Shown: positions 6,220 to 61,627 of the stretch, in pieces
Position numbering within the stretch: position 1 is the first letter of the stretch
How the letters are laid out: every line of letters begins with the position of its first letter
Virus record (IMG/VR): IMGVR_UViG_3300013108_000188
Length of the DNA: 64,000 nucleotides
Source of the DNA: a virus
Strand: one strand, 5' to 3'
Program-made: the position numbers and the translations under genes
Notes under the pieces: generated by a model
What the model was told of the DNA's origin: nothing
The model's database searches: none
The model's input: the letters and a program-made list of their open reading frames with translations, nothing else

Positions 6220-6738
6220 TTATTCCTCTTTTTTGTGTTTACCTAATATTTTAACTATTTCCCAAGTACCATCTTCATAATGATGTACTTCGGCGTCAAC
6301 TAAATCACACATAAAATTTAATGAATCACCGTGTATTTGATATGTGATACCATTAATCTCTACGCTATCTGTACCTTCTGCTCTATCTCTCCAAAGTTTT
6401 TCAACCTTTCTTTTGGTCTTCAAACAATCGGACATATTATCTGCACCTTTATGGTCAATTAATGTTCCGTCTGAAAATACACATACAGCAAATACTACTT
6501 CGGGTTCGTGTGTGTGTTCAGCACCTTCAATAGGACATTGTTGGTGTCCATCGTCTCCGCAACCAGTACAATTTGCCTGTGCTTTATTATTTAAAAATAG
6601 TCCAATTAATATAGCGGCCACAAATATACCTGCTACAATCTTTAACAAGTCTTTTGTATCACCATTCTTAAATCCTATTTTCTTTATTAGTTTTTTAAAC
6701 ATATTATCTGATAGGTGGTACATACATAACACCACCAT
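6220..6738 (-). CDS. membrane-anchored Cys-containing exported protein
   Basis: N-terminal TM; CLKxKRxxEK motif shared with 7788..8087; true start probably MFKKL. Confidence 0.55.
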   Translation of the reverse strand: MVVLCMYHLSDNMFKKLIKKIGFKNGDTKDLLKIVAGIFVAAILIGLFLNNKAQANCTGCGDDGHQQCPIEGAEHTHEPEVVFAVCVFSDGTLIDHKGADNMSDCLKTKRKVEKLWRDRAEGTDSVEINGITYQIHGDSLNFMCDLVDAEVHHYEDGTWEIVKILGKHKKEE

Positions 6739-12900: not shown

Positions 12901-13536
12901 TTATACTAACTCTGGTCGTTCTATCAAATATTTAGTACAAATAGGAAAATGCTCTTGCATATGTTTAACTATTTGTTCCGCTACTCTTCCTGTTTCTTTT
13001 TGTGCGTTTGGTTTAATTCTTAAATTACATACTCTACTAAAAGCATATACACTACCAGACCATATCCATTCGGTCATAGTATTTTGTGGGAGTATCATAC
13101 GAGCCATTTCAGGAGCAATACCTTCTTCTAACATATCATTATAAGTTTCTAATGCAACATTAACAGCGTGGTTAATATCATATTTTATAATCTTATCACC
13201 TGAACCTTGTTTAATAGATTTATCTGGTCTACTTCTCCACTCGTCTGTCATATAAAATTCTGGTTTATCATCTATGTATCTTCTACTCACTTCGTTCCAA
13301 GCTAAACCTACTTGATGTTTAACTAATTGTCTTGCAACAAATATAGGTGCTTTAATTCTAAATGACATTGTAGCGTGAGCAAAAGGTGACCAATGACCCC
13401 AATATGCCAAGTACTTAATTAACTTGTCATCTTTGGCGTCTAATTTGCCTTTTTTAACTTTTGCAAAGGACACTCTAGCAGCATTTACTACTGACATATC
13501 ATTGCCCATTTTATTTACAAAAGCTACCTCTATCAT
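12901..13536 (-). CDS. thyX: flavin-dependent thymidylate synthase
   Basis: VNAARVSF, HWSPF, ARQLVKHQVG.AWNEVSRRY, PEMARMILPQ. Confidence 0.95.
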   Translation of the reverse strand: MIEVAFVNKMGNDMSVVNAARVSFAKVKKGKLDAKDDKLIKYLAYWGHWSPFAHATMSFRIKAPIFVARQLVKHQVGLAWNEVSRRYIDDKPEFYMTDEWRSRPDKSIKQGSGDKIIKYDINHAVNVALETYNDMLEEGIAPEMARMILPQNTMTEWIWSGSVYAFSRVCNLRIKPNAQKETGRVAEQIVKHMQEHFPICTKYLIERPELV

Positions 13537-13748
13537 AAAGGCAATACTCCACTAGTCTTTGGTAATAAATTAAGTTTCTGACACTCCAACGCTACCTTTT
13601 CTTTTAATGCTTTGTTTATTAAAGGTCCAACGGTAGCAGTATCAATCTTTCTTTCCTCACAATATCCAACAATGGCCTCCATATAAGAGATACCTTTGTG
13701 TTCTTTTTTGTAAGTTTCTATTTCTAAACTAAATTGTTTTGAGTTCAT
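13533..13748 (-). CDS. gp33: late-promoter transcription co-activator gp33
   Basis: FSLEIE...YMEAIVGYCE...LINKALKEKV..E...LNLL; synteny. Confidence 0.85.
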   Translation of the reverse strand: MNSKQFSLEIETYKKEHKGISYMEAIVGYCEERKIDTATVGPLINKALKEKVALECQKLNLLPKTSGVLPL

Positions 13749-13786: not shown

Positions 13787-14047
13787 CTATCTATTTAATT
13801 TAGCTGCCTTTATTTGGGTAGGGTCTATATCATATTCACCACACGCAATAGAATTTATCATCTTATTAGAACCTTCCTGTGCTAGTGTCATTAACAATCC
13901 AGTATATAATGATGGATAATTTAAGGTAACGAAATCTGTACATTCTTTAAGTGTTTCAAACTTATATCCTGGATGATGTCTAATTTCATCTGGTTCTCCA
14001 GACGCAATTAGAATAGCGATTATCATAAAAAAAGTTTCTTTTAACAT
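13787..14047 (-). CDS. small exported hypothetical protein
   Basis: Hydrophobic N-terminus, two Cys. Confidence 0.55.
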   Translation of the reverse strand: MLKETFFMIIAILIASGEPDEIRHHPGYKFETLKECTDFVTLNYPSLYTGLLMTLAQEGSNKMINSIACGEYDIDPTQIKAAKLNR

Positions 14048-14071: not shown

Positions 14072-14325
14072 AAAGGTGGACTTCTGTTGCCAAGTGTCCA
14101 CCAAACTCCGTTGCCTATTAACTAGGCAGCAAGGGCAAATGTATTATTGCCAGTTAAAAATGAGTTTTAAGTTCTCCAACTATTAATCTCCAATGTTCTT
14201 TAATCTGTGAATCGAACCTGTATCACCCCCCATAAGCATACACCAATGGTATATGTTTAAAGTGAGTGGTGGAGGTGTTGGGAATTGCACCCAAGTCTTC
14301 TCCAGTTATTACAACACTTTCAACG
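14072..14325 (-). ncRNA. ssrA: circularly permuted two-piece tmRNA (alphaproteobacterial type), tag (A)GNNTFALAA*
   Basis: T-arm TTGGG-TGCAATT-CCCAA plus CACCTCC-A-CCA (14267-14294) precede an intervening hairpin and the 5' strand GGGGGTG (14224-14230), giving a 7-bp acceptor stem with G3:U70; tag ORF 14122-14151; terminal hairpin GGTGGAC/GTCCACC. Confidence 0.92.
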
Positions 14326-14326
14326 A

Positions 14327-14548
14327 CTAATTCTTTTCAATTTGTTTGCAAGTTTCTTTGTTAGCTTGTAATGGTAAATTTTTATCGTGTATCCATACAT
14401 ATGAATATACCACTTCATCACCTTTAATCATACATTTCTTTCCAAGTTTAACACTAGGAGTTTTTATGCTACAGGCACTAACAAAAAATAATGCAATCAA
14501 AAACAATCCAATTGTTTTCATATTTCCTTTATTTAAATCCTTTTTCAA
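14327..14548 (-). CDS. small lipoprotein
   Basis: Lipobox VSAC. Confidence 0.6.
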   Translation of the reverse strand: MKKDLNKGNMKTIGLFLIALFFVSACSIKTPSVKLGKKCMIKGDEVVYSYVWIHDKNLPLQANKETCKQIEKN

Positions 14549-14987: not shown

Positions 14988-15674
14988 TTACTTACGCAAG
15001 GCCATAACGCCTTCGTAATATTTATAAAAACTTTTTATAGATTTGTCTAATTCCTCGTAATAATCTTTAGGATTTTTTATCCACTCTTGCATTGAACCAT
15101 CTTCCCCAGCGATAAGGACAACTATTTGCTCTATCGGTTTACCGAATAGCTCCTCATACATAACTGCATAGGCAGTACATTGAAGAAAATAGTTATCAAC
15201 CCAATCTTCAATCTTTTCTTTGTTTGCTGTTTTGAAATCTATTACTGATAGTTTACCTCTATAGTCAGCAATACAATCAGTTTGACCTGCTAGCGTCAAT
15301 TTAGTACTATACATTATCGCTTCAATCAAATGTATATTCTCAATATTGTCTAGGTAGGGTTTCATAAGTCTAAACAGACCTAATGGTAATACAGAAGTCT
15401 CACCAGGCGTTTCGCCTTTTAAATAGTTCTCAACTAATGTGTGAGTAGATTTACCTCTTTTAGCAGCTCGTCTCATTTCAAAGTTCGCTACATCTTCTCC
15501 AATATTAGCTCTCCAGGCCTTTAGACCATCTGATTTTCTAATATTTAGGATTGAGGTTACTGATGGATAGTTCTTGCCATCTATCTCGTAAAATCTGAAA
15601 CCATCTTGGTTCCGACCTTTAGTAGTTGGCAGAAGTGATTTATTCACATCAACAAATTTAAATTCTTTAGCCAT
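14988..15674 (-). CDS. PD-(D/E)xK exonuclease
   Basis: YPSVTSIL, RGKSTH, AGQTDCI, VIDFKT, YFLQCTAYA. Confidence 0.88.
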   Translation of the reverse strand: MAKEFKFVDVNKSLLPTTKGRNQDGFRFYEIDGKNYPSVTSILNIRKSDGLKAWRANIGEDVANFEMRRAAKRGKSTHTLVENYLKGETPGETSVLPLGLFRLMKPYLDNIENIHLIEAIMYSTKLTLAGQTDCIADYRGKLSVIDFKTANKEKIEDWVDNYFLQCTAYAVMYEELFGKPIEQIVVLIAGEDGSMQEWIKNPKDYYEELDKSIKSFYKYYEGVMALRK

Positions 15675-38787: not shown

Positions 38788-40932
38788 CTAATCTGTCTGT
38801 ATTATTGTTATATTATTTTGGGTAGAGGAATTTCCCACATCAAGGTGTTGTGCTTCTTTATCTTGTAAAATTTGAATATCTGCCTCATTACTCGTTTCAG
38901 TTTTTACATAAGCTCTATGATTATCGTTATATCTATTTATAATTGTGTAGTCACCACTAGTAGAAGCAGTAGCGTCAAAATCATTATTTAATGTTGATAC
39001 TCTTCCTGTGGAAGTAGCACTTGAAGTCGCACCTGTAACCCCATCCGTTGTAGTTAAAGTTTGGGTTACATCTCCAGTAGTATAGTTTAAAGTTTCACCA
39101 CTAGCAGTTACCTGTGTTTCTGCACCAGTATTATCAACCCATTCAGTACCACAACTAGAATTAGCATTGTCCCAATAGTATCCATATTTTAAACACTCGT
39201 CTTCATTATAACTAGCTAATAATATTTCTAGTTCTGCGTCTATATCATAGTCATCTTCGTAAGCATATTCATCTTCCCAACTAGATTGGTCATCTTCATT
39301 ATTGTAATCGTAACCTGTGTACCACCAATCGTATAATGCGTCCCAATATGTATCCCAATCTGACCATTCCCAATCAGTTATGTAAGTCTTTTTTAAATCT
39401 TTCATTTTCCAAGGTTTAGGTTGGTCAGCACACATCTTATAGTTTGGCCAACTTCCACACCAACCATATAATTTACCAAATATCTTTTTAGCTTCTTTAG
39501 TCCAACTATCATTGGTTACTTTTAAAGTCCAGTCATCTTTATACCAATCGTTTAAGTAATCAACATAGTCTTGGTTACACCAATAGTCTTCGTAACCATT
39601 GTACTCACAATAGTTTTGTACCGTTAATGTAGGAGGACCTCCATTAGCAATGTATTCAGAATTGCTATAGTAAGCGTCATCTAAAGCAAAATCTTCCCAA
39701 GTATATCCTTCAACTACTTCTGCTTCTGTTTCTTCTTTAGTTTCTTCAACTACATCTTCCTCAACTACTTCTACATTCCAAGAAGCAAGACCATAGTCAG
39801 ATAAAATTTCGTTATATGCCTCATCATAAGCATCCCAATCAACTTCATCCCAATTTATATCATCCCAATTAACACTATCCCAACTACAATCTGAACAACC
39901 TATTGCGTCAAAATATGCTTGGTCCATTTCGGCATACATTTGTTTAGCGTCATCCCAATCCATAGTCTTTTCACCTTCAGCATCCCATACAGAAATCTGG
40001 TTATCTTCATCTATATAACCCCACTCTTTTAAATCATCTTCCCATTCATCATAGTAAGATGTATCTACTTCTGATTCTACAACTGCTGTATCTAAACCTT
40101 TTTCTTCTATTGATTGTGTTTCAATTATTGCGTCACCTTCACTAACAGACATATCTGTTTGAACAATTGTGTCATTGTTCTCTACTACATTTACTTCTTC
40201 ATTTATTATCGCCTCTTCCATTGCTTGTGCTTTTTCAACTTTAGTATCCATATCACCAAAAGATTTCTCAACATCTTCTTTTATATCTTCTTCAAATTTA
40301 TCTAACTCAATAATGTTTTGTTTATTAGTTTCTATTTTAGGAGGTGTAGGTGCTAAATCATTATTATAAACGGTTACGGAATTAAATGCGTTTGTAATTG
40401 TTTGAGAACCTGCGTCATTAGATACGGTTAACATACCTACTGAACCATCACTATCAGGCAACAAAGTAATTGTTGCTTTACCTGAAGTATCAACGGTACC
40501 TGAAAACGCTGTACCTTGTACCGTAATCGTAGCGTTACCAGCATTAATATTAACTTCACCACCTAATTCTGATACACTTCCAGATTCATATGTAAATGAA
40601 CCTACATTAACCGATATGTTCATTGCTAATTCTATTGGCACAACAGAAGTATCAAAAGCAAACTCATCAATAATTAATTCTGTATTTGGTCCCATTGTAA
40701 ATTTAGTTTTATCAACATATGATATTATCATACCACCATCTTCACCTGTTTGAAGAAAGTCGTTCATCTGTAATTCATAACCAGTAGAAGTGTTTTCAGT
40801 TGAACCGTCCCTTTCGTTCCAAGTCGTACCCATTGAACCTATGACTTCGCCAACTTTTGGACCTGTTATTTGAGCTATTGCACTAGTACAGAAAAGTACC
40901 AGGAAAGATACTATGAGAAATAGTTTTTGCAT
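38788..40932 (-). CDS. exported FecR-domain protein with acidic Trp/Tyr-rich region and curlin-like C-terminus
   Basis: Signal peptide; D.LQTG.DG..I.Y.D.T.F.MGPN..L.ID and A.I.V.GT.F FecR motifs; ends NNITIIQTD. Confidence 0.8.
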   Translation of the reverse strand: MQKLFLIVSFLVLFCTSAIAQITGPKVGEVIGSMGTTWNERDGSTENTSTGYELQMNDFLQTGEDGGMIISYVDKTKFTMGPNTELIIDEFAFDTSVVPIELAMNISVNVGSFTYESGSVSELGGEVNINAGNATITVQGTAFSGTVDTSGKATITLLPDSDGSVGMLTVSNDAGSQTITNAFNSVTVYNNDLAPTPPKIETNKQNIIELDKFEEDIKEDVEKSFGDMDTKVEKAQAMEEAIINEEVNVVENNDTIVQTDMSVSEGDAIIETQSIEEKGLDTAVVESEVDTSYYDEWEDDLKEWGYIDEDNQISVWDAEGEKTMDWDDAKQMYAEMDQAYFDAIGCSDCSWDSVNWDDINWDEVDWDAYDEAYNEILSDYGLASWNVEVVEEDVVEETKEETEAEVVEGYTWEDFALDDAYYSNSEYIANGGPPTLTVQNYCEYNGYEDYWCNQDYVDYLNDWYKDDWTLKVTNDSWTKEAKKIFGKLYGWCGSWPNYKMCADQPKPWKMKDLKKTYITDWEWSDWDTYWDALYDWWYTGYDYNNEDDQSSWEDEYAYEDDYDIDAELEILLASYNEDECLKYGYYWDNANSSCGTEWVDNTGAETQVTASGETLNYTTGDVTQTLTTTDGVTGATSSATSTGRVSTLNNDFDATASTSGDYTIINRYNDNHRAYVKTETSNEADIQILQDKEAQHLDVGNSSTQNNITIIQTD

Positions 40933-42018
40933 TTAACACCCGCTATTGTTTAGCTGAACGGTTGTATCTGCTGTCTGATTGTTTCTATTGAAAGAGTATG
41001 TACAATTATCTGAACCATCTTGGTCAACAAGTAAAGTGTAATCGTAAATTGAATCACCACTTACGGTTAAGTTTGCTTCGTTTGAACCACCTGTTTGTTT
41101 TAATTCTACTACTGCGTTTGAAGTATAGATATAAACATATGCCTTATTGTTTCCACCACTTCCATAATATCTATAAACATTTGAGTTACCACTTGTAACC
41201 GTTTTCATATAATTATTATCGCCGTATTGAATCATCCTTATGTGAGAACCTACAGCGTCTGGATGAACATCTAATACATTTGAATCACCTATGACATCGT
41301 GTACTTGATAATTACTAGCACCCCAACTTGCCATATGAACCGTATTGGAGCTACCAATTATATAAACATCAATTGTAGCACCTTCGTCACCACTTGTATC
41401 TGCAAATTGTCCGTGTGATTCTACATTTGGACCAATCATAACATTTGCTTTACTTGAACCAACCATACCTGTTGAGTTAGTTGCACCATAAAACTCTACA
41501 TCATTTGAATCACCTGACATAAGAACATATAAGAAGTGTGAGTCACCTCTTAAATATGCCCAAAAATCATTTGAGTCACCTTTAATATCTAAATCTATGT
41601 GAGTATCTTGTATATCATCACTTGTATGTGAATCTAACTCTACTATGTTTGAGTTACCTGTAATATCTATATCGTAATAGTGTCCATCTGCGCCTGTGTC
41701 ATCTAAATCAAGTCTTAATACATTTGAATCGCCTGTTGCAATGTAATCAAAGGTCATATTAGACCCATAAAAAGTGTCGTGGTTGGTATCTACAGCAACA
41801 TTATTATCGCCTAATTGTTTTATGATAAGTGTTAAGTTAGGACCATTAATTATAAAATTTGCTGAGGAAGAACCAAACTTATTACCTGAACCATCTTGTT
41901 TTATATAGATGGATCCTGCACTAGTTTGATTGTCTTGCTGAATATAAACAGAATTGCCAGCGAAACTATTAGTTAGTGTCGCTAGAAGAATCACTATTGC
42001 CATTACTATCTTTTTCAT
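40933..42018 (-). CDS. curlin-like repeat protein (CsgA/CsgB-like)
   Basis: Signal peptide; repeated (Q/I)xGxxN beta-solenoid units of about 22-24 aa. Confidence 0.75.
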   Translation of the reverse strand: MKKIVMAIVILLATLTNSFAGNSVYIQQDNQTSAGSIYIKQDGSGNKFGSSSANFIINGPNLTLIIKQLGDNNVAVDTNHDTFYGSNMTFDYIATGDSNVLRLDLDDTGADGHYYDIDITGNSNIVELDSHTSDDIQDTHIDLDIKGDSNDFWAYLRGDSHFLYVLMSGDSNDVEFYGATNSTGMVGSSKANVMIGPNVESHGQFADTSGDEGATIDVYIIGSSNTVHMASWGASNYQVHDVIGDSNVLDVHPDAVGSHIRMIQYGDNNYMKTVTSGNSNVYRYYGSGGNNKAYVYIYTSNAVVELKQTGGSNEANLTVSGDSIYDYTLLVDQDGSDNCTYSFNRNNQTADTTVQLNNSGC

Positions 42019-43081
42019 CTGACTTGTTCTCCTGTTCTGTATGTTTGTCTACTTCGTCCCAATCTTTTTCATCTACGAGTTTTGTACACTCTTCTGATAC
42101 TTTACCAGAAGCATTAGCGTTTTTCTCGCATTCCATTTTAATTTTTATATCTCTTTTTCTTGCTTCTTTTTCTTCTTCTTTTTGTTTAAGATAGTCTTCG
42201 TATGTTTTCTCAACTTTTTCTTCACCTATCTCTACGGTAATTGGTGTTCCGTCATACTTATCTAAAGCGTGACCATCTTCTACATAATCTTTAATTTCTG
42301 GCACTATTGTTTCATCAATTTCCCATAAACCTTTTTTAGCACCTTCATTAATTAAATCTACTACACCTTTTTCTATTGCTTTTCTTACTGCATAGGTAAC
42401 TGGTTCGTTTCTTGCCACTCCCATTTCAATCTCTACTAACATTGTATCTGTATCTAGGTATTTAAATACATCTGCACCTGTTTCGCCTGAAAGTATAGTC
42501 TTTTCAACGGTTGTAGTTATTACTACTTCACCACTTTGTACATTAACTAATCTTAATATAATAGTAACCACATCTTGTCTGTATTGTTTGTGTGCTTGAA
42601 TACCTAATATTCTTGCACCAACACCACCAGATTTAGTATCACTATCATATCCTACTATACCACCTGTGATATATGCACCTGCGAATAGTAATGGTGGTAA
42701 AGGTTCTGCACCTTCACCATTTACTTGTTGTCTTGTAGACCTTATTAATTTTCTCTCTTGTAATAGACTTGGTAGACTTGCTCTTTCAACAACTCTAAAC
42801 CATTTGCCATCACCTGCGTCTTGTAATGCTTTAATTAATAATTGATATGACCCTTGCGTTACCGCTGTACTCATTGACGCAAAAGAACCACCTGGTTTCT
42901 TTTGTCCTGTCATATCTAAAAAATCATACACAGCAATTACTACTGGTTCACCTTTTGGCGAATTAATTTCTGTCAATCCTTTATATGATACCGTTTGAGT
43001 TCTTACATCAAAATCTGATTTTGTACTCGCACAACTACCCAAAAAGAGTGTAAGCAATAACAAAGATATAATTCTTAACAT
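41969..43081 (-). CDS. csgG: curli secretion channel lipoprotein CsgG
   Basis: Lipobox LGSC; AVYDF.D.TGQ.KP, STAVTQG, WFRVVER, ERKLIRS, GGIVGYD, NEPV. Confidence 0.95.
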   Translation of the reverse strand: MLRIISLLLLTLFLGSCASTKSDFDVRTQTVSYKGLTEINSPKGEPVVIAVYDFLDMTGQKKPGGSFASMSTAVTQGSYQLLIKALQDAGDGKWFRVVERASLPSLLQERKLIRSTRQQVNGEGAEPLPPLLFAGAYITGGIVGYDSDTKSGGVGARILGIQAHKQYRQDVVTIILRLVNVQSGEVVITTTVEKTILSGETGADVFKYLDTDTMLVEIEMGVARNEPVTYAVRKAIEKGVVDLINEGAKKGLWEIDETIVPEIKDYVEDGHALDKYDGTPITVEIGEEKVEKTYEDYLKQKEEEKEARKRDIKIKMECEKNANASGKVSEECTKLVDEKDWDEVDKHTEQENKSDEKDSNGNSDSSSDTN

Positions 43082-43089
43082 ATTTTTTC

Positions 43090-43548
43090 CTACGAGTTAT
43101 CTTCTTTAGGTAAAGTATAAGTTGTTACCGTACCATCTGATTCTGTTACCGTTACCACTACATTACCTGTACCTGATGGTGTAGTCCAAGTGACCACTTC
43201 TCCACCAACTGGTGATGTAAATGTACCAGAGTCTTGTTGTAGACCATCTGTACCGAATACATTGTCCGTAATTTGTTTTGCCAGAGCAGTATAGAATCTA
43301 CTCTCTAAATTTGCTTTGAATTTAGCTATAGCAGTTGCCTTTGCGTCTGCTGTTGCTTTATCAGCTGCCGCTTTGTTCGCTGCCTTGATTGCGTCTTTTC
43401 TAGTTTTCTCAATGTTCTCTATTGTTAAATAATGTGAAGACTTTCCTTTACCTGAAAACGAAGGACTATCAAATTCAAATGTTAGTTCGCTTGAGTATGC
43501 ACTAGAGATAAAGACAAGTGTAAGTATAATACTTGTAATGAATCTCAT
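43090..43548 (-). CDS. csgF: curli assembly protein CsgF
   Basis: Signal peptide then ELTFEFDSPSFSG; F..NLESR....L; immediately upstream of csgG. Confidence 0.85.
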   Translation of the reverse strand: MRFITSIILTLVFISSAYSSELTFEFDSPSFSGKGKSSHYLTIENIEKTRKDAIKAANKAAADKATADAKATAIAKFKANLESRFYTALAKQITDNVFGTDGLQQDSGTFTSPVGGEVVTWTTPSGTGNVVVTVTESDGTVTTYTLPKEDNS

Positions 43549-43563
43549 AATTCTCCTAATAAT

Positions 43564-43586
43564 TGCTATAATATTTATAATAAATA
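43564..43586. promoter_or_regulatory. divergent promoter region: late TATAAATA (minus, 43572-43579) for csgF; TGcTATAAT extended -10 and AATAAATA (plus) for the cyclase
   Basis: Motifs read directly in the 55-bp intergenic gap. Confidence 0.55.
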
Positions 43587-43603
43587 GTCAGACGAGAATT
43601 GAT

Positions 43604-45229
43604 ATGAATCAAATATTTACTACAAGATGGTTTGCTTGTCTCACTTTTGTTATACTTCTTGGAATTTACTTGGTAAATCCAGTACTATTACAATCAACTA
43701 GACTAGCAACCTTTGATACTTACCAGAAATTTGGGACTCATTTAGATTCCAAATCTTTAGTCCTATTGGATATTTCAGACAAAGCACTTAAAAAGAACGG
43801 ACAATGGCCTTGGAAAAGAGATACACTTGGTCGCACTATAATTAATGCGTATAAAAATGGTGCCGCTCTAGTAGTATTACAAGTAGTCTTTCCTCATAAA
43901 GATAGACTAGGTGGTGATGAAATGTTTTTAAAGATGATACAAAAATATCCTGTCATACTAACTGAAACAAATGAAGTTAAAAATCTTATCAGTATATCCA
44001 GAAGAGCATTAGCAATAGGTAATGTATCTGTACCTGTTGATATAGATGGTACTATAAGAAAACTACCTCTGGATAAATCAATACCTGAAGTCGTATTAAA
44101 AGTAATAAAATTTCCTACACCTGAAGTAGATAATATTTGGTTAGATTTTAGACATCATATTCCTAGAGTAGATTTTACAGATAAAGATTGGTCATCTATG
44201 AAAGGTAAAATAGTTTTCATAGGTACTACATTTAAAGGTTCTACTTTTGCATTAACTCCAAATGGTTTAAAAAACACACACGAAATTATGGCAGTTAGTA
44301 CAGAAACTTTATTGTCTGGTAAATATATTAGTAGACCACATTGGTTATCTAGTTTAGAATTTTTTTATATAATAATAGGTTGTGTAATACTATTGTTTTT
44401 TATTCCTAAATTAGGTGTATTATCTTCTGCATTAATGTATGCTGGTTACTCTATACCTATCGCACTAGGAAGTATATATCTATGGACACAAAATTTATAT
44501 CTAACTGATTGGTTAAGTCCATTAGTAATAGGTACTTTAGTTTCAGGTCATTTAATATACAATAATTTTGCTAGAGAAAATAGATTGAAACTACAAATTA
44601 AAAAACAATTTGAACATTATCTAGCACCTCAAATGGTTAAAAAATTACAACAAAATCCATCACTATTAAAACTAGGTGGAGAGAGAAAAGAAATGACATT
44701 TTTGTTTTCTGATATAAGAGGTTTTACTCCTATAACTGAATCAATGAAAGGCGAACCAGAAAAGGTTGCTAAGTATGTTAATAAGTTTCTTACTGCAATG
44801 ACAAGTATAATACTTAAAAATGGTGGCACTATTGATAAGTATATGGGTGATTGTATAATGGCATTTTGGAATGCACCACTTGATAATCCAGAACATAAAA
44901 GACTAGCAATATTATCTGCGTATCAAATGAGAAGAACCGTTAGAGAAATGAATAAGAGTGGAGAGTTTAACCCACCTTTAAATATTGGTATAGGTATCAA
45001 TACAGGCGATTGTCTTGTAGGTAATATGGGTAGTGAACAAAGGTTTGACTATTCTGTTATCGGTGACGCTGTTAATCTTGCAAGTAGATTAGAAGGTCAA
45101 AGTAAAGAATTCAATACAACTATTGTAATATCAGAAAATAGTATCGCTGGAGATTTGCCGTTCTATAAACTTGGTAAAGTTAAAGTAAAAGGTAAAGAAG
45201 AAAAGATTAATTGTTATTCTATTAAGTAA
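43604..45229 (+). CDS. CHASE2-domain class III adenylate cyclase
   Basis: GQWPWKR CHASE2 motif, 1+3 TMs, LKLGGE, FSDIRGFT, IDKYMGDCIMAFWNAP, GIGINTG, FDYSVIGDAVNLASRLE; start reassigned to MNQIF. Confidence 0.93.
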   Translation: MNQIFTTRWFACLTFVILLGIYLVNPVLLQSTRLATFDTYQKFGTHLDSKSLVLLDISDKALKKNGQWPWKRDTLGRTIINAYKNGAALVVLQVVFPHKDRLGGDEMFLKMIQKYPVILTETNEVKNLISISRRALAIGNVSVPVDIDGTIRKLPLDKSIPEVVLKVIKFPTPEVDNIWLDFRHHIPRVDFTDKDWSSMKGKIVFIGTTFKGSTFALTPNGLKNTHEIMAVSTETLLSGKYISRPHWLSSLEFFYIIIGCVILLFFIPKLGVLSSALMYAGYSIPIALGSIYLWTQNLYLTDWLSPLVIGTLVSGHLIYNNFARENRLKLQIKKQFEHYLAPQMVKKLQQNPSLLKLGGERKEMTFLFSDIRGFTPITESMKGEPEKVAKYVNKFLTAMTSIILKNGGTIDKYMGDCIMAFWNAPLDNPEHKRLAILSAYQMRRTVREMNKSGEFNPPLNIGIGINTGDCLVGNMGSEQRFDYSVIGDAVNLASRLEGQSKEFNTTIVISENSIAGDLPFYKLGKVKVKGKEEKINCYSIK

Positions 45230-45942: not shown

Positions 45943-46399
45943 AATTTGGGTTCGCTATACTTGGACATTCTCTATTAATTTCAGATTTCTTTGTAGCTTT
46001 AATTTCTGCTTCTGTTAAGGCAGCGCCACCAGCAATTTCAACACAACGCATAACATTATCGCTACCTCTATTGATTATTTTCTGTATGACTTTCGTTTTT
46101 TCTAATGCAAGTTTACCAAAGTCTCTTCCACCTTTAGTAAATCTCTTGTCTAAATCTTGTAAATCCTTTTGAAGTTTATTCATAAGAGTATTCATCTTAT
46201 TATTTGCTTCAAGGATTTTACCAAAGTCTTCTTTTTGTTGGGCTATAACTTTCTTTTGACCTTCAACGGCAGCTTCTAACTTAACTTGATTAGCTTTTAA
46301 AATTGCATTGTCCTTCTGCAATTTCATAACATAGAGACCTGCACCTGCAAGTCCACTAATCATTATTACAACCATTGCCATTTTCATATAACCAAACAT
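45923..46399 (-). CDS. i-spanin (Rz-like)
   Basis: N-terminal TM, long periplasmic coiled coil, C-terminal Cys. Confidence 0.7.
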   Translation of the reverse strand: MFGYMKMAMVVIMISGLAGAGLYVMKLQKDNAILKANQVKLEAAVEGQKKVIAQQKEDFGKILEANNKMNTLMNKLQKDLQDLDKRFTKGGRDFGKLALEKTKVIQKIINRGSDNVMRCVEIAGGAALTEAEIKATKKSEINRECPSIANPNYVPYSN

Positions 46400-46515
46400 A
46401 AGTTTACTCTACTTCCAGAATTTTAATTTTTTAACTAAACCCGCTAGGTCTTCAAACTTCTCATTAACATACCAACCTAAAGCGAATCCTATAATAAGTC
46501 CTATTGTTAAAAACA

Positions 46516-61551: not shown

Positions 61552-61627
61552 TGGTGCCCTTTACTGGACTTGAACCAATAACCTACTGATTACAAATCAG
61601 TTGCTCTACCAATTGAGCTAAAAGGGC
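61552..61627 (-). tRNA. tRNA-Thr(UGU)
   Basis: GCCCTTTTAGCTCAATTGGTAGAGCAACTGATTTGTAATCAGTAGGTTATTGGTTCAAGTCCAGTAAAGGGCACCA, 76 nt cloverleaf with encoded CCA. Confidence 0.97.

Follow-up and report, generated by a model that had tools for sequence, protein, structure and literature searches.

The 64,000-nucleotide (nt) stretch of viral DNA analysed here, IMG/VR record IMGVR_UViG_3300013108_000188 (the window), carries at positions 14330-14073 of its minus strand a full set of canonical transfer-messenger RNA (tmRNA) parts in the correct order. Such an RNA rescues stalled ribosomes and marks incomplete proteins for degradation. A preliminary description, made from the sequence alone, had placed at 14072-14325 a circularly permuted tmRNA that is encoded by the phage and specifies a tag of its own. 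These limits take in nearly all of the gene; the 5′ limit needed correction, as the outer P2 helix begins at 14330 and not at 14325. The parts of the gene are as follows.

14267-14330, minus strand: acceptor piece, with the P2 5′ strands, the T-arm, the acceptor 3′ strand, the discriminator and CCA (from Rfam alignments).
14330-14325, minus strand: outer P2 5′ strand UUAGUC, in the acceptor piece.
14294-14278, minus strand: T-arm UUGGG-UGCAAUU-CCCAA, adjoining the acceptor 3′ strand.
14277-14271, minus strand: acceptor 3′ strand CACCUCC (from the sequence).
14270, minus strand: discriminator A (from the sequence).
14269-14267, minus strand: encoded CCA (from the sequence).
14231-14266, minus strand: intervening segment (spacer) of 36 nt, with an 8-bp hairpin CAUAUACC-AUU-GGUGUAUG (from the sequence).
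14073-14230, minus strand: coding piece, with the acceptor 5′ strand, the P2 3′ strands, pseudoknot 1 (PK1), the tag frame, the stop-codon hairpin and the 3′ pseudoknot (from Rfam alignments).
14230-14224, minus strand: acceptor 5′ strand GGGGGUG, pairing with CACCUCC in a 7-bp stem.
14188-14183, minus strand: outer P2 3′ strand GAUUAA, in the coding piece.
14162-14181, minus strand: PK1, with P3 AGUU:AACU and P4 GAG:CUC.
Between PK1 and the resume codon, minus strand: single strand AUUUUUAACU, 10 nt.
14122-14151, minus strand: tag reading frame GGC AAU AAU ACA UUU GCC CUU GCU GCC UAG, encoding (A)GNNTFALAA and a stop.
14113-14127, minus strand: stop-codon hairpin GCCUA-GUUAA-UAGGC (helix-5 equivalent), containing the UAG stop.
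14075-14108, minus strand: 3′ H-type pseudoknot, GAGU (14108-14105):ACUU plus GGUGGAC:GUCCACC, closing the near-invariant loop ACUUGGCAACAGAA.

The gene order on the minus strand is permuted: the T-arm and CCA (14294-14267) are followed by the spacer (14266-14231) and then by GGGGGUG, which starts at 14230. All of the elements named in the preliminary description are present on this strand, from the acceptor piece upstream of the coding piece to CACCTCC-A-CCA and GGGGGTG, and the hairpin-forming spacer has exactly the length that it had given. In the acceptor stem G3 faces U70, the alanine identity pair. The hairpin is all that this spacer contains. The 54-nt acceptor-spacer-acceptor stretch (14277-14224) folds at -17.7 kcal/mol (z = -2.53), and the spacers of homologous loci, which range from 20 to 47 nt, share an ACAC/GUGU hairpin core. 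By analogy with known two-piece tmRNAs, the 36-nt segment would be removed on maturation.

Two Rfam covariance models, a check that the preliminary description had proposed, match the locus above their gathering thresholds. The alpha_tmRNA model (RF01849) matches 14375-14073 on the minus strand with 85.2 bits (gathering 50, E = 1.2e-21), and the tmRNA_permuted model (RF04321) matches 14329-14122 on the same strand with 84.1 bits (gathering 47, E = 1.2e-14). Based on these two matches, and on the covariation seen in each helix that varies, the conservation of the tag frame and the synteny shared among T4-like marine phages, we identify the element as a phage-encoded permuted tmRNA with its own ALAA-ended tag, as first described. 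More specifically, we put at roughly 85% the probability that 14330-14073 is an ssrA gene that functions, that it belongs to the two-piece (circularly permuted) alphaproteobacterial type and that its carrier is a lytic marine myophage, T4-like and of the pelagimyophage/Melnitz group. The gene is real and looks functional, yet its type has already been described for this group of phages: an orthologue is annotated in Pelagibacter phage Mosig, and the type is published for Melnitz and Mosig.

A scan of IMG/VR with a pattern made of the T-arm, acceptor, spacer and GGGGGUG elements found homologues in 108 viral contigs. Two of them (L017 and L067) represent essentially the same phage as the window (~100% protein identity). 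Phage tmRNAs had been called uncommon in the preliminary description; this is true of phages as a whole (2.3% of genomes, PMC9004378) but does not apply to the present group. With Mosig added to the 108 contigs, 109 loci were available for locus comparisons. For structure counts we used 73 distinct sequences aligned with MAFFT; as this alignment is not structure-aware, its percentages underestimate pairing in those helices that vary more. The full structure, with PK1, the stop-codon hairpin and the 3′ pseudoknot, was written out and then counted over this alignment.

Over the 73 sequences, 90.6% of cells are paired, compared to 41-49% in controls in which the 3′ partners were shifted by 1-3 columns. 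Compensatory changes, affecting both sides of a pair, occur in 36 of the 51 base pairs. The covariation score is 0.379 versus 0.05-0.08 in the shifted controls, and none of 500 shuffles attains the observed values. Independently of this, RNAalifold arrived at a fold of 26 pairs, 16 of them compensated, that includes the P2 helices together with the acceptor stem and the T-arm. Each of the 16 pairs in the P2 helices (helices 1-3) shows both-side changes, and the paired share of cells is 95%, 72% and 98%. The search pattern itself fixed the acceptor stem and three T-stem pairs, which for that reason do not vary among the homologues; in none of the 73 sequences is either of the other two T-stem pairs broken, one occurring as GC (52), CG (11), UA (8) and AU (2) and the other as AU (34), UA (30) and CG (9).

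The coding piece is conserved in the same manner. All seven pairs of PK1 (helices 6-8) show both-side changes, with 72-85% of cells paired; for example, alignment columns 193:205 are UA in 39 sequences and GC in 22, and columns 203:244 are GC in 41 and AU in 12. The stop-codon hairpin (helix 9 in our count) has 89% of cells paired, and its UAG/CUA pairing becomes UAA/UUA among homologues. A perfect stem of 5-7 bp forms the 3′ pseudoknot in 64 of the 73 distinct homologues, using 22 different stem sequences, and one of its pairs (columns 316:333) is AU in 41, GC in 24 and CG in one, with zero unpaired. The same motif also ends the Rfam alpha_tmRNA consensus, and the phage gene therefore keeps the alphaproteobacterial 3′ domain.

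The RF04321 alignment places UAACU-GGC of the window on UAAaU-GCa of the model, with GGC on the model's resume GCa; GGC is accordingly the resume codon. The UA at -5/-4 before GGC would correspond to the U85-A86 context that sets the frame in E. coli tmRNA. From this codon the frame at 14151-14122, which lacks a start codon and a ribosome-binding site, reads GNNTFALAA with the LAA end given in the preliminary description, and it is conserved in homologues. The +1 frame, GCA AUA AUA CAU and onwards (AIIHLPLLPS and a stop), was considered and rejected: it lacks an AA ending, Rfam aligns GGC at the resume position and the homologues conserve the GGC frame.

To find the tag frames of homologues we used position alone, taking YAA-NN-GGC downstream of PK1. 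This identified frames in 61 loci, amounting to 24 distinct 30-mers. All 24 are open and end in Ala-Ala-stop; 20 have exactly nine codons and the other four have 8 or 10. Entropy in the tag frame is 0.69 at third positions versus 0.31 at positions 1 and 2, and 0.47 versus 0.09 over codons 5-9. Judged on these sequences, such third-position variation is the signature of a translated peptide.

The glycine resume codon had been presented as unusual. Within the phage family it is the commonest form, found in 63 of the 108 loci, while the remaining loci read UAAAC-GCA AAC GAU and so on and encode classical ANDN-type tags. Against Alphaproteobacteria, the description stands: among the ARAGORN tags of 43 alphaproteobacterial tmRNAs (from a 121-genome class-level sample plus three genomes from the contig scan), Ala is the first residue in 42 and Val in the remaining one, with no case of Gly. 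The 119-of-121 tally of that sample includes one genome flagged as unpublished (G045), on which no other result depends. An acceptor-motif scan of genome contigs with the exact motif gave none from Pelagibacterales, and the comparison with hosts is thus one with alphaproteobacterial genomes and the published phylogeny. In the phage lineage, resumption at Gly is a derived character that is widespread, and it was visible already in the Mosig annotation.

The same contrast between phage and cellular tags, which holds for the tags of about nine codons resuming at Gly, bears on a different account of the gene, namely that it is a working tmRNA of mainly selective value. Through its short, phage-specific tag with Gly in first place, proteins that are mostly those of the host would be sent to degradation, which would supply the phage with amino acids or blunt an RNase-based defence. 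Amino-acid recycling was indeed raised as a possibility by Buchholz et al. (PMC9004378). Nonetheless the tag ends in a generic ALAA degron, and a substantial minority of related phages, Melnitz included, have ordinary ANDN-type tags, so that we regard this account as unlikely. A stronger version of it would have the short Gly-initiated class (A-G-x-x-x-F-A-L-A-A) be a phage-specific adaptation and not drift, a retargeted tagging system that competes with the host tmRNA for host SmpB and sends stalled, mainly host chains to proteolysis. We hold this to be speculative and distinctly unlikely.

A functional ssrA gene of the two-piece type needs partners, and these would have to come from the host. 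A hidden Markov model (HMM) built from five bacterial SmpBs found nothing in the window translated in six frames (best E 0.7, compared to 1e-66 to 1e-77 for positive controls), which bears out the earlier remark that no smpB lies in the window. A Pfam search for SmpB over the complete Mosig and Melnitz genomes found none either. As there is no SmpB in the window, Mosig or Melnitz, the RNA would have to use host SmpB. All five small alphaproteobacterial-type genomes checked have smpB. The tmRNA of the window would likewise have to rely on alanyl-tRNA synthetase (AlaRS), EF-Tu and tRNA-processing enzymes of the host.

Based on these elements we propose the following course. The gene would be transcribed with the surrounding early or middle genes. 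As in the Caulobacter two-piece tmRNA, host tRNA-processing enzymes would cut 5′ of G14230 and the 3′ end would be trimmed to the CCA ending at 14267. The hairpin spacer would be discarded, leaving an acceptor piece of ~64 nt and a coding piece of ~156 nt, which the acceptor stem and the covarying P2 helices would hold together. Host AlaRS would charge the RNA by way of G3:U70, and host SmpB and EF-Tu would bring it to ribosomes stalled on broken mRNAs. Translation would resume at GGC14151, adding AGNNTFALAA, from a frame that is conserved at the level of the peptide. The C-terminal ALAA may then act as a degron for host ClpXP-type proteases. As for the benefit, our guess is that ribosomes are kept free and amino acids recycled while host mRNA is degraded and the supply of host tmRNA falls; extra rescue capacity during host mRNA breakdown and the countering of RNase-type defences are other possibilities.

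A phage that lacks SmpB competes for the host protein, and the RNA could instead be a decoy that titrates SmpB and shuts down host trans-translation. This has been proposed for the molecule of mycobacteriophage DS6A, which consists of the tRNA-like domain only. Such a DS6A-like form strongly inhibits tmRNA, and titration of SmpB may be how it does so (PMC4131195; PMC11915505 for the DS6A form, in E. coli). However, a decoy needs no more than the tRNA-like domain, whereas this gene has also retained PK1 and the resume context, the tag frame with its stop-codon hairpin, and the 3′ pseudoknot, all of which covary, and the tag shows a codon-type constraint. We therefore consider a decoy very unlikely and a working ssrA gene the better explanation of the locus.

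The window has a G+C content of ~32-33%, and nearly all of its genes are on the minus strand. Around the tmRNA the order is a PD-(D/E)XK nuclease, two small open reading frames (ORFs), the tmRNA, an 86-codon ORF, gp33, ThyX, gp59 and gp32; NrdA, a DnaB-like helicase and a CHASE2 cyclase lie farther off in the window. The neighbours that matter most for the locus are the following.

14988-15674, minus strand: PD-(D/E)XK nuclease, upstream neighbour (Pfam PF12705, E = 1.9e-6).
14327-14548, minus strand: 73-codon ORF, upstream, with its UAG stop (14329-14327) within the first tmRNA helix (ORF list).
13787-14047, minus strand: 86-codon ORF, downstream, starting 25 nt past the tmRNA 3′ hairpin (ORF list).
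13533-13748, minus strand: gp33-type late-transcription coactivator, downstream neighbour (Pfam PF16805 Trans_coact, E = 5.9e-21).

By tblastn, the nuclease is found on the strand of the tmRNA in 87 of the 109 loci, mostly 0.7-1.4 kb upstream and in about ten loci at 3-9 kb. On that strand gp33 follows downstream of the tmRNA in 82 of the 109 loci, as it does in Mosig and Melnitz, and the distance is mostly no more than a few hundred bases. Judging by these matches, most of the viral loci share the slot between the nuclease and gp33. The two small ORFs next to the tmRNA have a narrower distribution: tblastn places the 73-codon ORF directly upstream of the tmRNA in 14 related loci (50-100% identical) and the 86-codon ORF in its position in 14 loci, both of them only in the subclade of the window. 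A Pfam search assigned the 73-codon ORF to no family and the 86-codon ORF to none above threshold. Over conserved genes the DNA of the window is ~75% identical to that of the Pelagibacter phages Mosig and HTVC008M. In the tmRNA region the sole nucleotide match is to Mosig (74% over 157 nt), and it lies under a feature annotated as SsrA.

Two further features were observed elsewhere in the window. Its only tRNA gene is a tRNA-Thr(UGU) at 61552-61627 on the minus strand (75.3 bits on the Rfam tRNA model). The CHASE2 adenylate/guanylate cyclase is encoded at 43538-45229 on the plus strand (Pfam E = 6.9e-27 and 3.5e-21; window region 38788-45229), and in the Melnitz record a curli module of CsgF, CsgG, curlin and FecR is annotated beside the cyclase of that phage.

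The distribution of the gene also speaks to the idea that it is a decaying hitch-hiker, host ssrA DNA acquired by chance, for instance through a temperate phage, and left unused. Gene exchange with a temperate phage has been suggested as the origin (Buchholz et al., PMC9004378), and the gene is reduced compared to cellular ones (85 bits versus 150 or more). Against this, the homologues of the 108 viral contigs mostly occupy one genome slot, compensatory changes preserve every helix and synonymous changes preserve the tag. Apart from genes cut by a contig end, none of the loci examined has a disrupted acceptor stem or tag frame. A decaying passenger is hence highly improbable. We dismiss as hardly credible the further idea of an attachment-site relic, the ssrA piece that integrating elements often carry from inserting in a host tmRNA gene: although tmRNA genes are common integration sites (PMC4383910, PMC9004378), the gene is complete on both sides and not a 3′ fragment, it lies among replication and late-transcription genes (gp32, gp59, ThyX, gp33) of a lytic, T4-like phage with no integrase nearby, and its published relatives have no integrase (PMC9004378).

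Several observations weigh against the view of a functional ssrA gene, and we list them together. ARAGORN reports no tmRNA at the locus of the window, even at thresholds lowered down to -ps80. The alpha_tmRNA score of 85 bits compares to 150-313 bits for cellular alphaproteobacterial tmRNAs; by this measure the tmRNA of the window is a reduced, divergent version, and we assume that it can work with the SmpB, AlaRS and RNase P of its host. The 5′ helix takes in the stop codon of the ORF before it, and a scan for sigma-70 promoters gave no convincing candidate immediately upstream on the minus strand. Hemmed in by ORFs on both sides, the tmRNA is probably cut from a polycistronic transcript. Finally, the host has its own tmRNA, which blurs the selective advantage of a phage copy.

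The ARAGORN result deserves a closer look, as it was one of the checks proposed in the preliminary description. The program does detect the genes of Mosig (GEDNFALAA and a stop) and Melnitz (ANDNYVPVDYALAA and a stop). Nevertheless it misses 45 of 102 complete homologous viral loci (~44%), and all 20 of the missed loci that were tested score above gathering on both Rfam models, at 58-118 bits. Since so many homologues are missed and those tested pass Rfam, we judge the missing call at the window locus a false negative of the program, a problem of sensitivity and not evidence against the gene. Surveys based on ARAGORN probably undercount phage two-piece tmRNAs, which the Rfam models find.

Previous work provides the frame for this gene. 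Buchholz et al. 2022 found tmRNAs in 402 of 18,146 phage genomes, with 133 unique structures; ARAGORN called 53 as two-piece, 50 of these from marine or aquatic phages (PMC9004378). Permuted tmRNAs were present in 17 of 47 Melnitz-like contigs, and a tmRNA tree grouped the Melnitz/Mosig-type genes with alphaproteobacterial and pelagimyophage tmRNAs (PMC9004378). Earlier surveys had one-piece phage tmRNAs only (PMC4131195). The tmRNA_permuted model is described in PMC11915505.

The orthologue of the window gene in Pelagibacter phage Mosig EXVC030M (MT647606.1, SsrA feature 111467-111805) occupies the same slot, with the PD-(D/E)XK nuclease and small ORF(s) before the tmRNA and gp33, ThyX and gp59 after it. 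It has the permuted layout, identical acceptor strands, a T-arm matching the search motif, a GGC resume codon and a nine-codon tag ending in FALAA. The two genes differ in the tag (GEDNFALAA in Mosig, GNNTFALAA in the window) and in the spacer (44 nt in Mosig). Unlike Mosig, the window has the extra 86-codon ORF between the tmRNA and gp33, and its gene is invisible to ARAGORN.

Methylophilales (OM43) phage Melnitz EXVC044M (MZ577097, ssrA gene 86), a related T4-like phage, carries a two-piece alpha-type tmRNA in the same slot. This gene differs from that of the window by its Ala-resume tag ANDNYVPVDYALAA, a spacer of ~150 nt (within L002:5974-6391), a T-loop of alpha-like type and, directly before the gene, a strong promoter. 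At 37.6% G+C, Melnitz also differs in composition, and the window represents another member of the T4-like marine group. Immediately 3′ of the Melnitz ssrA lies a glutamine riboswitch (RF01739, 52.8 bits). With Melnitz as a positive control, RF01739 and RF01704 gave no match at gathering in the window and none at E up to 10 around the gene, and no glutamine riboswitch was found near the Mosig tmRNA.

The Melnitz riboswitch (L002:6399-6447; record 46398-46446) starts 8 nt past the 3′ pseudoknot of the tmRNA and overlaps the ATG (6431) of an unannotated 45-codon ORF on the plus strand (6431-6568). It has been published as 'controlling' the tmRNA (PMC9004378). Given this arrangement, the riboswitch more likely gates the 45-codon ORF rather than the upstream tmRNA.

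The cellular two-piece tmRNA of Caulobacter type (RF01849; Keiler, Shapiro and Williams 2000, cited in PMC9004378) shares with the window gene the order of acceptor piece, spacer and coding piece, as well as G3:U70, the joining P2 helices, PK1, an AA-ended tag and a 3′ pseudoknot with a GGCAACAGAA loop. Its tags, by contrast, start with Ala, are mostly of the ANDN type and have 9-30 residues; the T-loops are mostly of the GGCGGUA or GGCAGUA type compared to UGCAAUU in the window, and a genomic smpB, absent from the window, accompanies the gene. Phage-borne ssrA genes also occur in mycobacteriophages (Bxz1, Cali, Catera and others) and in Bacillus phage G, where their role lacks a clear demonstration (PMC4131195). 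These differ in having the one-piece standard gene form and in belonging to other hosts and phage lineages. DS6A has the tRNA-like domain without a coding part (PMC4131195).

Matches to alpha_tmRNA at phage-like scores (74-88 bits) were also observed on three contigs (L178, L179 and L180) of a metagenome-assembled genome of Verrucomicrobiales, CPC23 (G004). L179 and L180 are low in G+C, and ARAGORN reports the tags GEGNFALAA and ANDNFAPVDYALAA on them. They look like pelagimyophage/Melnitz-like phage contigs that were binned into a bacterial genome.

As a discovery the gene carries little weight, given that two-piece tmRNAs are already in the literature for phages of the pelagimyophage and Melnitz types and that the Mosig record annotates the orthologue. 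At the sequence level, it is set apart from its relatives by its own tag and by the absence of a Melnitz-type riboswitch, and from cellular genes by its reduction. What the analysis adds is a covariation-backed structure, over 73 sequences, of the reduced phage form with its PK1, stop-codon hairpin and 3′ pseudoknot. If the idea of a retargeted tagging system were true, the phage would gain by recycling amino acids in streamlined hosts starved of nutrients, or by neutralising abortive-infection toxins that cleave mRNA. The tag of about nine codons that resumes at Gly offers a handle on what leads lytic phages of streamlined marine bacteria to retain an RNA for ribosome rescue while lacking SmpB.

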